Of a stretch of DNA of 44,580 nt, positions 35,568-39,102 are shown piece after piece; within the stretch, counting starts at the first letter, position 1, and every line of letters starts with the position of its first letter. The position numbers were made by a program, and so were the translations under genes. This DNA comes from Actinomycetes bacterium (GTDB lineage: Bacteria > Actinomycetota > UBA4738), in the NCBI GenBank assembly GCA_021784765.1, contig JAJYHN010000139.1, positions 1-44,580 on the forward strand, written 5' to 3'. The notes below the pieces were generated by a model. The model was not told the origin of the DNA, searched no databases, and saw nothing but the letters and a program-made list of their open reading frames with translations.

Positions 35568-36977
35568 GTGGCTGCGATCTCCAACGGTGAGCTCGAGACC
35601 GCCTCCGAGATGGCGGCGGCGCTCGCGGCCGGCGGGACCTCGTCGCTCGAGCTCGTCGAGCGGGCGCTCGCTCGCGCCGAGGCGTGGCAGCCGGCGACGA
35701 ACGCGCTCTCGCAGCCCCCCTGGGCCGAGGAGGGCCTTGCCGCGGCCCACGCGGCCGACGCGGCGCGCCGGGCCGGGGACGCCGGGCCGCTCGCCGGCAT
35801 CCCGATTGCCGTCAAGGACCTGTTCGACGTGGCCGGCCACGTGACCACCGGGTGCTCGCGTGCCTACGCGGATCGCGCTCTCGCGGCCGCCGACGCGCCG
35901 ATGGTCGCGGCCGTGCGCGCCGCCGGGCTGGTGCTGATCGGCAAGCTGAACCAGCACGAGCTCGCGGCCGGCGGGACGAACCTGGTCTCGGCGTGCGGGC
36001 GCACGGCGAACCCGTTCGACCCCGAACGGATGACCGGCGGCTCCAGCGGCGGCTCGGCCGCCGCCGTGGCCGCCGGCATCGTGCCCTGGACCCTCGGCTC
36101 CGACACGGGTGGGTCGATCCGCATCCCCTCGTCGATGTGCGGGGTCTACGGCCTGAAGCCGACGACCGGACGGCTCTCGATCCGGGGCATGCTGCCGCTC
36201 GCGCCCTCGCTCGACTGCCCGGGACCGATCGCGGCGACGGGGGCCGATCTGGCGATCCTGTTCGCCGTCCTTCACGGGCGGGACCCGGGGACGGCGGTGC
36301 CCCGACCCCCGCCGGCCGCTGCGGTCGGCCGGCGCGTCGGCGTCCCCGAGGGCTACCTCGACGGGGTCGTCCACCCTGAGGCCGGGGCGGCGGTCGAGGC
36401 GGTCGCGGCCATGCTGGGGGGGGCCGGCGCCGAGGTGGTCCGCCTGGACGGACACGGGATCGAGGACGCGCGGAGCGTATGGAACCGCGTCTGCTGGTCG
36501 GAGTTTGGCCCCGCGCATCCGGCCCTCGCCGACCCGGCGCGCCGGGCGCTGCTCGACCCAAGCGTCCGAGAGTGGATCGAACGGGGGGAGGCCCTCTCGC
36601 CGGAGGAACGCGAGCGAGCGGCGGCCCGCCGCGAGGAGATCGGCGAGTGGTTCCGCGACCGCCTCGGCGGGGTCGACGCGCTGGTGGTGCCGACGACGCC
36701 CTACCCGGCCCCGCGGGCCGACCAGGAGGAGGTCGACCTGGGCCCGGCCGGCACCGTCCGGGTCGCGCGGATCGGTCCCGGCTACCTGACCTCCGCGGTG
36801 AACCTCGCGGGGCTGCCGGCCCTGTCGCTCCCGGCCGCGTGGTCGTCCGAGGGGCTGCCGATCGGGGTGTCGCTGATCGGGCACGACGACGGGGAGGCGA
36901 CGCTGCTCGAGCTCGCCGCCGTGTGGGAGGCAGGGGGCGGCCACAGGCCGCGGCGACCGCAGCGGCCGGCGCAGTGA
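35568..36977 (+). CDS. Amidase-signature family protein
   Basis: PLAGIPIAVKDLF, GGSSGGSAAAVAAG, GSDTGGSIRIP, NLAGLPALSLP. Confidence 0.92.
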   Translation: MAAISNGELETASEMAAALAAGGTSSLELVERALARAEAWQPATNALSQPPWAEEGLAAAHAADAARRAGDAGPLAGIPIAVKDLFDVAGHVTTGCSRAYADRALAAADAPMVAAVRAAGLVLIGKLNQHELAAGGTNLVSACGRTANPFDPERMTGGSSGGSAAAVAAGIVPWTLGSDTGGSIRIPSSMCGVYGLKPTTGRLSIRGMLPLAPSLDCPGPIAATGADLAILFAVLHGRDPGTAVPRPPPAAAVGRRVGVPEGYLDGVVHPEAGAAVEAVAAMLGGAGAEVVRLDGHGIEDARSVWNRVCWSEFGPAHPALADPARRALLDPSVREWIERGEALSPEERERAAARREEIGEWFRDRLGGVDALVVPTTPYPAPRADQEEVDLGPAGTVRVARIGPGYLTSAVNLAGLPALSLPAAWSSEGLPIGVSLIGHDDGEATLLELAAVWEAGGGHRPRRPQRPAQ

Positions 36978-37023
36978 GCCGCCGCCGTCGAGGCCGTGGG
37001 GTGCCCCATGCGAGAATGAGCCC

Positions 37024-37482
37024 GTGCGCCTCTCCGCGAAGGCCGACTACGCGATCCGGGCGACCGCCGAGCTCGCGGCCGCCGGCCCCGGCGCGCCCGT
37101 CAAGGCCGAGCAGATCGCGCGGGCGCAGAGGATCCCGGTCAAGTTCCTGCTGAACATCCTGGCCGAGCTGAAGCACGCCCGGCTGGTGGCGAGCCAGCGG
37201 GGAGCGGAAGGGGGCTACCTCCTCGCCCGGCCGGCCGAGGAGATCACGCTCGCCGACGTGATCCGCGCCGTCGAGGGCCCGCTCGCGAGCGTGGGCGACC
37301 GCCGCCCCGAGGTCCTCTCCTACGAGGGGCCGGCCGAGCGCCTCCGGGACGTTTGGATCGCAGTGCGCGCCGGCCTCCGCGCGGTGCTCGAGCACGTGAC
37401 GCTCGCCGATCTCGCGTCGGGCGAGCTGCCCGAGGTCGTCCTCGCCCCCGGCCGCGACTCCGAGGCCTGGCTTCCCCACTGA
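37024..37482 (+). CDS. Rrf2 family transcriptional regulator (no Fe-S Cys ligands)
   Basis: MRLSAKADYAIRA...SQRGAEGGYLLARPAEEITLADVIRAVEGP; the protein contains no cysteines. Confidence 0.93.
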   Translation: MRLSAKADYAIRATAELAAAGPGAPVKAEQIARAQRIPVKFLLNILAELKHARLVASQRGAEGGYLLARPAEEITLADVIRAVEGPLASVGDRRPEVLSYEGPAERLRDVWIAVRAGLRAVLEHVTLADLASGELPEVVLAPGRDSEAWLPH

Positions 37483-37483
37483 T

Positions 37484-37928
37484 GTCATGAAGGAGCGGGC
37501 CTCCGCTCCCGTGCTTAGAGCGTGACGGCGTACCGTCCGCTCAGCACAAGCGACAGGAAGGAGGCCCTACCGGGACGAGTCCGGGTGCCGGACCTACCCG
37601 GTCTCCTCCGCTCCGACGTCGGTCCGGGCGCGCTCGCTAGGGGTCATGGCCTCGCCTTCGGGCGACGGCCGCTGCCACTGATTGAGCCGCCCGTGCCGCA
37701 CGCTCACCATGGGAGCCCACCCGAACAGATGACTGGCGCAGACGTCGCCCCTGCGTGGTCCACGCGGCCAACCGACCACCCCGGCCGTCCATCCAACGCC
37801 GGTCCTCGCCGGCGTCAAGGTCGTTCGTCCGGTTGGGCGCTCCACCTTGACCCCGGCTCCGGGCCGTCGTGTGAGGCGGCCAAGGAGGTGATGTGGACGG
37901 ACTTGACACCCGCCCGCCCTTCATAGAT
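37484..37928 (+). mobile_element. Non-autonomous, transposase-less IS110-family (IS1111-like) element
   Basis: Flanked by direct repeat GATG (37481-84 and 37926-29). Sub-terminal IRs ATGAAGGAGCGGGC (37487-37500) and GCCCGCCCTTCAT (37912-24). A left-end hairpin occludes an RBS with no start after it; outward TTGACA at 37903; internal guide RNA matches the flanks. Confidence 0.75.
37625..37739 (+). ncRNA. Putative bridge/seek RNA core (target-binding loop plus donor-binding loop)
   Basis: Stem CGGGCG-c-GCTC/GAGC-CGCCCG encloses an internal loop with GGGTCAT (37641-47) and CCACTGAT (37675-82), capped by GGCC-TCGCC-TTCG-GGCGA-c-GGCC. A second stem GTGCCG/TGGCGC has loop strands containing ...CCAT and ...AGAT. 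Strand inferred from the cUUCGg tetraloop and G-U pairs. Confidence 0.7.
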
Positions 37929-37962
37929 GACCCGGGGAGCGGCACCCCCGCCGAAAGTCCAG

Positions 37963-38022
37963 TTGACGTGCCCGCCCTGCAACCGTAGCCTGGGTGAGGA
38001 TACTCAAGTGTTTCGGTGGAGT
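37963..38022 (+). promoter_or_regulatory. Promoter of the TauE/SafE gene with a possible Rrf2 operator
   Basis: TTGACG (37963-68), 17-nt spacer, TAGCCT (37986-91); ACTC-N13-GAGT (38002-38022) just downstream. Confidence 0.6.
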
Positions 38023-38070
38023 TGATCGACTTTCTGGGGTCCGGCCCGGAGCTCCGCCGGAGGAGGGGCG

Positions 38071-39102
38071 ATGCACCTCGATCCGTTCGTGGCGCTGTCC
38101 GGGTTCATCGTCGGCGTCGTCGTCGGGATGACGGGGATGGGCGGCGGCGCGCTGATGACGCCGATCCTGGTGCTGCTCTTCAACGTGAACCCGCTCGCGG
38201 CGGTCTCGAGCGACCTGGTGGCCTCGATGGTCATGAAGCCTGTGGGGGCGGGGGTTCACCTGCGCCGCGGCACCGTGCGGATCGACCTCGTGCGGTGGCT
38301 GATGGTCGGGTCGGTGCCGGCCGCGTTCGCCGGCGTGTTCGTCCTGAGGGCGTTCGGGACCGGTCGGGCGGCGGCGTTCGATCTCGAGCTGGCGCTCGGG
38401 GCCACCCTGCTGCTGTCGGCCTCGCTGATCGTCGGCAAGGGCTGGCTCGCCACCCGCCGCCGTCGCGTCGAGGGCGGGGGTCTCGCCGGCCGCCGGCCCC
38501 TTCGCGTGCGACCGCTGCGCACGGTGGCGATCGGCATCGCCGGCGGGCTCATCGTCGGCATGACCTCGGTCGGCTCCGGGTCGCTGATCATCGTGGCCCT
38601 GATGCTCGTGTACCCGTCGCTCGCGGCCTCGGAGCTCGTCGGGACCGACCTCACGCAGGCCGTCCCGCTCGTCGCCTCGGCGGCGGTCGCGCACATCCTG
38701 TTCGGGGACTTCCGGCTGGGGCTCACCGCGTCCCTGCTGCTCGGGAGCTTGCCGGGGGTCTTCCTGGGCGCGCGGATGTCCTCACGCGCCCCCGACGGCG
38801 TGATCCGGCCGGCGCTGGTGTTCGTGCTGCTGGCGTCCGCGCTCCGGCTCCTCGGGATGCCCGCGTCGGTGCTCGGGCCGGTGCTGCTCGGGGTCGTGCT
38901 GGCCGGCATGCCCGCGTGGGCGCTCGTCGACGCGGCCGGCTGGCCGCGGGAGCTCTGGGCGCGCGCGGGGCTCGACCGTCGGCGCTGGATCGGGCTGCAG
39001 GCCGCGCCGGCCGCCGGCCCCATCGCCTACTTCGCCGCCGCCCGGCCGCGGCTCGCCGCGGCGGCGGTCGACCGCGACCGGGTCGAGCGCGAGGTCGCCT
39101 AG
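38071..39102 (+). CDS. Sulfite exporter TauE/SafE family membrane protein
   Basis: VGMTGMGGGALMTP, AVSSDL, VGMTSVGSGSL, LVGTDLTQAVPL; SD GGAGGAGG. Confidence 0.9.
   Translation: MHLDPFVALSGFIVGVVVGMTGMGGGALMTPILVLLFNVNPLAAVSSDLVASMVMKPVGAGVHLRRGTVRIDLVRWLMVGSVPAAFAGVFVLRAFGTGRAAAFDLELALGATLLLSASLIVGKGWLATRRRRVEGGGLAGRRPLRVRPLRTVAIGIAGGLIVGMTSVGSGSLIIVALMLVYPSLAASELVGTDLTQAVPLVASAAVAHILFGDFRLGLTASLLLGSLPGVFLGARMSSRAPDGVIRPALVFVLLASALRLLGMPASVLGPVLLGVVLAGMPAWALVDAAGWPRELWARAGLDRRRWIGLQAAPAAGPIAYFAAARPRLAAAAVDRDRVEREVA

Follow-up and report, generated by a model that had tools for sequence, protein, structure and literature searches.

The window analysed here is a stretch of 44,580 nt (contig JAJYHN010000139.1 of assembly GCA_021784765.1, Actinomycetes bacterium, lineage UBA4738), and its source is a metagenome-assembled genome (MAG) of 1.94 Mb in 213 contigs that is 84% complete. 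Positions 37480–37927 of the forward strand very probably hold a non-autonomous, internally deleted derivative of an IS1111-type element of the IS110 family of insertion sequences (IS), which would have inserted at full length and later lost its recombinase gene in place. The 448 bp that remain keep both ends and the gene for a putative targeting RNA (seekRNA or bridge RNA), with two loop strands that can be read against the DNA on either side of the insert. The original prediction, of an IS110/IS1111-like element that lacks a transposase and has guides fitting the site where it sits, held on the three points where it was open to refutation: an allele without the insert was found, a recombinase gene is linked to homologous ends in full-length relatives, and the loop sequences track the flanks from copy to copy.

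In the sequence of events that we propose, an ancestor of about 1.3–1.4 kb, made up of a left end, a gene for a DEDD/Ser recombinase of 337 amino acids (aa), a 3' non-coding seekRNA/bridge RNA and a right end, would have entered CCCCAC-TG(A)-CCCGG, where a gene for an Rrf2-family regulator has its stop codon, by RNA-guided recombination. In that step TGACCC would have been read on its top strand by the 5' loop strand of the RNA, and CCACTGA on its bottom strand by the 3' loop strand. A later deletion of about 970 bp between two GCCCT repeats would have taken out the recombinase gene; the two ends with their sub-terminal inverted repeats would have been spared, as would the RNA gene and an outward-facing -35 box.

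The empty site and the crossover

Twelve sequencing runs contain part of the stretch; four runs of one mine-drainage study contain 76–95% of the sampled words, and the others small shares. The contigs of four runs (X1, X3, X4 and X5) were compared with the locus. One contig of run X1 covers the entire occupied locus. Run X5, a wastewater metagenome from a separate study, contains a 5375-nt contig in which 36903–37479 and 37928–38500 are contiguous, which is the empty allele that had been proposed as a check. Its flanks differ from the window at 23 of 1150 positions, and it is the same locus, between the Rrf2 gene and a TauE/SafE-family gene, at 98% identity. The joint from 37479 to 37928 skips 448 nt with a 3-nt ambiguity, TGA, and it follows that the element measures 448 bp, runs from 37480 to 37927 and has CCCCAC-TGA-CCCGG as its natural empty site. 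The boundaries are uncertain by at most 3 nt, with TGA present twice, at 37480–37482 and 37928–37930. This triplet, common to the start of the element and the target, makes up the only repeated bases at the insertion, and there is no target duplication.

Two further contigs touch the same region. One contig of run X3 shows the same empty joint, with 27 nt on one side and 85% likeness; this is weak and we do not rely on it. A contig of run X5 joins 37507 to 37808, skipping 300 nt with a shorter side of 29 nt, and may be another deletion form or an unrelated element that shares both pieces.

The empty contig also corrects the original prediction in several respects. The insert had been placed between two GATG copies, and these are present at 37481–37484 and 37926–37929, but its length had been given as about 445 bp and is 448 bp by the X5 joint. 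The expected empty site, ...CTGATGACC... (...CACTGATGACCC...), is not what the contig reads, so that the excision point had been placed 3 nt off. The crossover sits within TG(A), not in a shared AT core, and the target with its core is CCAC-TG(A)-CCC where CCACTG-AT-GACCC had been proposed. In the family, 7 of 56 right flanks start with TGC instead of TGA, which suggests that TG is the likely common core. The targets of relatives often end in TGA.

The guides follow the flanks

The 5' loop strand of the putative RNA, GGGTCA(T) at 37641–37647, is complementary to the top strand of TGACCC, which is the crossover and the right flank. Taken with its last base, GGGTCAT is the reverse complement of ATGACCC at 37927–37933, and the final T fits the element's own last A. 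The 3' loop strand, CCACTGA(T) at 37675–37682, equals the left flank plus TGA and so pairs with the bottom strand; in full, CCACTGAT is identical to 37476–37483, with the final T fitting the fourth base of the element. Both matches had been part of the original prediction and can be read directly. The two strands thereby match the junctions formed by insertion one base further than the empty target, and in the element the top-strand match stands 5' of the bottom-strand match.

The family follows the same rule: the right flank is matched, as its reverse complement, by the 5' loop strand, and the left flank recurs as the 3' loop strand. In the relative G118 the guide CGCTGGTCAT stands against the flank ATGACCAGCG, and in G152 CGCAGGTCAT stands against ATGACCTGCG; the G119 copy matches at 12 of 12 positions, and several Chloroflexota copies at 8–11. 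In a first count, with the duplicate row L034 dropped, 70 of 105 variable positions matched on the right side (15 elements; permuted mean 41.1) and 54 of 84 on the left (12 elements; permuted mean 34.9). A larger count took in 79 elements at 60 distinct insertion sites, the metagenomic ones being drawn from the matches listed, and left out on each side those rows in which no end could be recognised or the flank ran off the contig. It gave 283 of 371 variable positions on the right (n = 53; permuted 159.5 ± 8.5) and 178 of 287 on the left (n = 41; permuted 119.0 ± 6.8). None of 20000 permutations reached the observed value on either side in either count, and the loops of homologs do covary with their flanks as had been foreseen. 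Four right sides match at invariant bases only. Row L038 of the alignment and counts is identical to a locus of genome G126, and no conclusion depends on it. The guides of the window copy are unique among the 79 elements.

The copy on G118:C159 (L037) has TAA for TGA at its left junction; its 3' strand matches the left flank at 1 of 7 variable positions, while the right side matches at 7 of 7. The left junction could be off-target or have mutated later.

The fold of the retained RNA

The predicted target-binding loop occupies 37620–37698, with an outer stem (37620–37624/37694–37698), a stem of 9–10 bp (37627–37636/37683–37691), an internal loop and an inner hairpin (37647–37653/37664–37671). 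A consensus fold was made with RNAalifold and pair counts on an alignment of 16 copies. Its parts are an outer stem of 5 bp, a stem of 9 bp, the internal loop, a hairpin of 7 bp and then a short second stem, in all 24 pairs with 96.6% of the cells paired and 7 pairs changed on both sides. The observed covariation was reached by 0 of 500 shuffles, and slid controls were paired at 21–47%. The 10-bp stem and the UUCG-capped hairpin (37647–37671) around an internal loop, as originally predicted, appear in the single-sequence folds as well as in the consensus of 16 homologs. What varies in this nearly invariant scaffold is the two internal-loop strands, and the retained RNA as predicted from the alignment has the shape of a seekRNA/bridge-RNA target loop. 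Folding of the whole 445-nt stretch gave z = -6.14. A search of Rfam returned no family at threshold, and the weak hits to Acido-1, MIR1846 and P33 (E 0.07–0.67) were judged to be chance.

The occupied contig of run X3 has T for G at 37640, in the target loop just 5' of the GGGTCA guide; neither base fits the flank.

Full-length relatives and the deletion

A search across the order (294 genomes) found matches in 12, our own MAG included. The copies on G118:C159 and G152:C88 carry the left end at 88–89% identity and the right 365 nt at 78% and 76%, and the two parts lie 850–970 bp apart. In G118:C159 this gap is filled by an intact open reading frame (ORF) of 337 aa, P0001, with the domains PF01548 (DEDD_Tnp_IS110, 71.1 bits) and PF02371 (Transposase_20, 81.3 bits). 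P0001 scores 217.7 bits on NF033542, 'IS110 family RNA-guided transposase', and its residues 190–325 match the ISCro4 and IS621 transposase chains in the PDB (E 8.7e-17 and 2.7e-14). A full-length parent type with such a protein between homologous ends, which the original prediction had suggested looking for, is thus at hand. The G152 copy is decayed and its recombinase gene is shortened.

The left end of the window element, 37486–37568, corresponds at 88–89% identity to the 5' untranslated region of the lost recombinase gene in these relatives and includes its ribosome-binding site, GGAAGGAGG (37556–37564). At the other side of the junction, 37571–37603 encode RDESGCRTYPV, a remnant of the last codons of the recombinase gene (RDEGGCRAYPV in P0001, 9 of 11 residues identical) from which the stop codon is gone. 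The 3' non-coding region, 37604–37927, is homologous to the region downstream of the recombinase gene in relatives, where the scaffold starts some 20–30 nt past the stop codon as judged by eye, and where the distance from 30 nt ahead of the scaffold's upstream edge to the right end is 222–336 nt (15 relatives). The two BLAST segments of the window element overlap at element nt 81–85, GCCCT (37564–37568), and this 5-nt microhomology is found at both breakpoints in G118:C159, once directly after the ribosome-binding site and again 14 codons ahead of the stop codon. This implies that about 969 bp were lost between two short direct repeats. A recombinase ORF of about 330–350 aa is absent from the window element, which retains the 11-codon remnant only, whereas the homologous full-length relatives encode one, and the window copy is therefore a derivative and not an autonomous member of the IS1111 group.

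Genome G010, of the same family as the MAG, has two contig ends with the first 85 nt of the element at 88% identity, each followed by ATG and an IS110-type N-terminus. These copies (L006 133–145; L008 1489–1500) lie a few bases 3' of the transfer RNA (tRNA) genes tRNA-Leu(CAG) and tRNA-Ser(TGA), after CTGA. They break the G010 assembly, and their right end is unassembled. Two assembled recombinases of G010 were considered as the rest of these copies and dropped, their N-termini being different from those at the contig ends; a single exact match to the right inverted repeat in G010 was also dropped, since it sits inside a coding-looking region. Beyond G010, the family-level DNA search gave only weak short matches.

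Scanning genome contigs at the protein level turned up 33 related loci, in MAGs of Actinomycetota, Chloroflexota and more distant lineages. Recombinase relatives of 29–60% identity (L043, L048, L051–L058 and others) come from contigs that were binned as Micrarchaeaceae, Elusimicrobia, Bathyarchaeia, Thermodesulfobacteriota and others, and the Elusimicrobia copy (40% identity, low GC) has a loop-like segment that, by eye, agrees with its right flank over 9 nt. Scanning metagenome contigs for the RNA-scaffold pattern gave at least 120 loci; among those listed, 63 had the full RNA anchor and 57 lacked it. Six of these 63 are cut by contig ends and the remaining 57 could be judged by eye: 47 match the recombinase over its full length, 5 have internal deletions, 4 are 5'-truncated and 1 lacks both the gene and the left end.

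Ends, donor loop and junction

Given the X5 joint, the element has a left terminal extension of 7 nt, TGATGTC (37480–37486), and a right extension of 3 nt, AGA (37925–37927), and these lengths fit the 7 bp left and 3 bp right that are given for the IS1111 family in a part of PMC11187229. Next to them lie the sub-terminal inverted repeats, ATGAAGGAGCGGGC at 37487–37500, which is kept in relatives, and GCCCGCCCTTCAT at 37912–37924. They face each other with 13 complementary positions and a one-base indel, in agreement with the 13–14 bp first proposed and with the 11–13 bp of the IS1111-type group. The pair was missing from an ungapped repeat search because of the indel, and Chloroflexota relatives show a perfect 15-nt version of it. 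The last six nucleotides are CATAGA in 72 of 73 elements, and the right flank that follows, TGACCCGGGG at 37928–37937, consists of the crossover triplet and then the right target.

The short second stem of the consensus lies in a putative donor-binding loop at 37699–37736, with the 5' strand CACCA(T) at 37705–37710, the stem GGG 37711–37713/CCC 37720–37722 and the 3' strand GAACAGATGA at 37723–37732. The stem covaries, GC being exchanged with AU in 6 sequences. In 55 of 58 parsed elements the 3' strand begins with GAATAGATGA, and the 13-mer GAATAGATGACTG is found in 50. The consensus GAATAGATGA equals the right end, ATAGA, plus TGA, and this second loop would presumably serve to bind the donor. 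The original prediction had seen a partial match of this loop to the predicted circle junction, which is borne out only in part: the 3' strand fits in the family consensus, the window copy has a mismatch there, and the 5' strand, CA(C/U)CA, is a weak match, complementary to TGATG at 4–5 of 5 positions by eye. The ends of the element are invariant.

An outward-facing TTGACA stands at 37903–37908, 17 nt from the hexamer GATGAT, which is formed only by joined ends, from the last two and the first four bases; the integrated right junction reads GATGAC. Of 73 elements, 72 have TTGAC within their final 40 nt, with a spacer to the would-be junction hexamer of 17 nt in 59 and 18 nt in 12. This spacing fits the junction-promoter model of the family, by which a putative promoter would arise in the circle.

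Two other features were seen in the right part of the element. AGGAGGTGAT followed by G at 37883–37893 is a perfect 10-nt Shine-Dalgarno-like string with an ATG, about 35 nt inside the right end; the string is also present in the G118 and G152 copies, and the short frames behind it are not conserved. A hairpin module of about 70 nt in the 3' non-coding region, 37797–37866, is among the copies confined to the actinobacterial ones and absent from those of Chloroflexota, and both of its arms resemble the element's own ends. It is also found in other contigs of about 1 kb in runs X1, X3 and X4, at a depth of up to 134, and in G119:C113 (L024), at 89% identity, inside what seems to be the 3' end of another IS-like element, one that has a TTGAC and an ...ACAGAT end of its own.

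Decay in place or movement in trans

Several observations weigh against an insertion at full length that was followed by deletion in place. A full-length copy at this exact site was not seen in the contigs of the four runs, where absence proves nothing as contigs only were compared, and the order, insertion and then deletion, is for this reason an assumption. Even the nearest relatives sampled share no more than 78% identity in the 3' region and 89% in the left end; the direct parent has therefore not been sampled, and the GCCCT microhomology comes from a relative in its stead. The 128-nt RNA core folded as a single sequence is not unusual (z = -0.90), and the structural case for the predicted RNA is its covariation by itself. 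Beyond the three invariant bases the guides of the window match at 4 of 7 right-side and 5 of 7 left-side positions, which is mid-range for the family and not the best. The donor 3' strand, GAACAGATGA, has one mismatch, a substitution seen in 1 of the 58 parsed elements; it could be a sign of decay, or it could be tolerated.

An alternative is that the deletion came first, and that the 448-bp unit moved in as a self-targeting mini-element, RNA-only and resembling a MITE (miniature inverted-repeat transposable element), with a recombinase supplied in trans by a full-length relative. We consider this order of events unlikely. It would be compatible with the state of the copy, in which all known required cis features are kept (ends, inverted repeats, extensions, RNA gene and outward TTGACA) and in which the guides, found in no other element examined, fit its own site. 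The occupied locus in runs X1, X3 and X4 shows the mini form only, X5 and, on weak evidence, X3 have the empty form, and related left ends of about 87% identity are present in other short contigs of X1 and X3. Precedents exist as well: in the available part of PMC11187229, ISEc11 ends placed around a cargo move when transposase and non-coding region are provided in trans, and a part of PMC12288879 describes circles of MITEPpu9, of the IS110 family.

Against such a mini-element stands its copy number. The MAG, 84% complete, contains a single copy, and the further copies that had been suggested as a check are found in relatives as homologs and not in the MAG itself. No cognate recombinase was found in the MAG, the best match to P0001 having 30% identity and ends that are unrelated. 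A search of the metagenome contigs for the 22-nt deletion junction gave 0 exact matches, and 0 of the 57 judgeable metagenomic relatives among the matches listed has both ends and the RNA without a recombinase gene. Its putative donor-guide strand is uniquely mismatched to its own right end, and with the X3 joint as short and as divergent as it is, the case for coexistence of both alleles within one study is weak. Movement in trans is thus less likely than decay in place, considering the single copy, the lack of a cognate recombinase in the MAG and a deletion junction that is found nowhere else. Decay is common in the family: the judgeable relatives listed include internal deletions, 5' truncations and gene loss, and the G152 gene is shortened. 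It is accordingly doubtful that the 448-bp unit is a natural, still mobile guide-only transposon that entered the Rrf2 stop codon as a mini-circle; if it were, its presence/absence polymorphism in environmental populations would reflect recent movement. A full-length insertion that decayed in place is what we favour, and for lack of a cognate recombinase the remaining copy would at present be immobile.

That the RNA has been domesticated, as a small regulatory RNA of the host or as a guide for another resident IS110-family recombinase, is very improbable. The scaffold is intact, with one broken pair among the window cells in the consensus helices, and the RNA lies directly downstream of the Rrf2 gene on the same strand, where read-through transcription is possible. 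The MAG has two other IS110-family recombinase genes (G000:C172:235-1155 and G000:C49:2695-3777, open frames of 350 and 460 aa), and according to a part of PMC11187229 a seekRNA is not restricted to very closely related transposases. However, a relative with 98% identity at this locus lacks the insert, and the RNA is thus no conserved feature of the host. The two resident recombinases, which were also ruled out as parents or partners of the element, are at most 30% identical to P0001, and their elements share neither ends nor scaffold with the one in the window; a consensus scan of the integrated copy found 0 promoter-like or terminator-like sites in 37300–38150. The idea of ordinary conserved intergenic DNA with chance matches between guides and flanks, for which one might cite a single-sequence fold of the RNA core no better than shuffles and the lack of an Rfam family at threshold, is already refuted by the empty allele in X5, the homology to recombinase-carrying elements, the guide/flank covariation over 60 distinct sites and the covarying helices.

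Neighbouring genes

The Rrf2-family regulator gene upstream of the element (37024–37482, forward strand, 152 aa; PF02082, 124.6 bits) ends in the TGA at 37480–37482 that is also the crossover triplet of the insertion site. The first three bases of the element rebuild this stop codon, and the Rrf2 ORF is therefore unchanged by the insertion. Downstream lies a gene for a TauE/SafE-family membrane protein (38071–39102, forward strand; PF01925, 132.6 bits), and the distance between the two genes has grown by 448 bp through the insertion.

Comparison with known systems

The window element belongs to a kind of element already known, of which it is a well-documented case, and is not a new mechanism. 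It is a natural case of an RNA-guided IS that is readable end to end, with guides, target, crossover and empty site all visible. Its relatives make up a sizeable and apparently uncharacterised IS1111-type clade in high-GC Actinomycetota and Chloroflexota, of at least 79 elements at 60 distinct sites. The crossover of the clade falls in TG(A), frequently at a stop codon or immediately 3' of a tRNA gene, and its guide-target pairing is visible as natural covariation; it is raw material for mining bridge/seek recombinases for high-GC hosts. The transposase-less copy also shows that the RNA and the ends can outlast the enzyme gene. If units of this kind were to move in trans, it would be a new life-style for the family; the present evidence favours a decaying single copy.

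The closest likeness is to the IS1111 seekRNA elements ISEc11, ISPa11, ISKpn4 and ISPst6 (Siddiquee et al. 2024, PMC11187229). In the part of that study available to us, these have sub-terminal inverted repeats of about 13 nt, extensions of 7 and 3 nt, and a long non-coding region 3' of a gene for a DEDD transposase of 330–350 aa, to which the 337 aa of the relative's protein compare well. Their RNA matches overlap in the target and place the match to the top strand 5' of that to the bottom strand, an order that is reversed in the IS110 group; the insertion adds no bases, and a -35 box in the right end faces the junction. The window copy differs from these members in having no transposase gene, in guide matches that overlap by TG(A), and in belonging to a clade of Actinomycetota and Chloroflexota MAGs.

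IS621 and ISCro4, of the IS110 group, are reportedly bridge RNA systems (Durrant et al. 2024; Hiraizumi et al. 2024). P0001 shares its transposase domain with them. As far as a part of PMC13626964 describes these systems, the strands of the target loop read opposite DNA strands around a short shared core, and the 3' strand of the second loop matches the donor, that is the right end plus the core, as it would in the element discussed here. The guides of the window reach one base past the empty target, which recalls the handshake guides of IS621 in the same source, a tentative link. There are also clear differences: the RNA of the window element is located 3' and not 5' of the gene, the order of the strand matches is reversed, sub-terminal inverted repeats are present, the core is TG(A) and not CT, and the match of the donor 5' strand is weak.

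In the literature searched, no naturally occurring IS110/IS1111 derivative was found that lacks the transposase and still has its bridge/seek RNA, though the supplementary tables of PMC11187229 or of Durrant et al. may list this clade or remnants of a similar kind. The nearest case is MITEPpu9, with ISPpu9, of Pseudomonas putida KT2440 (Pares-Guillen et al. 2025, PMC12288879). From a part of that paper, MITEPpu9 is likewise a short transposase-less unit with IS110-family ends and a small-RNA gene, and it needs a recombinase supplied in trans. The small RNA in question, ssr9, is not the bridge RNA and is not needed for transposition, and the unit is present in 8 copies and forms detectable circles, whereas the window element carries the targeting RNA itself and is single-copy. 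By the measure of several copies, the window element is not a MITE. The engineered mini-ISEc11 (PMC11187229, in part) demonstrates that ends are sufficient in cis when protein and RNA are supplied, and a unit like the one in the window could in principle move in the same way. The mini-ISEc11 is a laboratory construct; the window element is natural, and has kept its RNA in cis.

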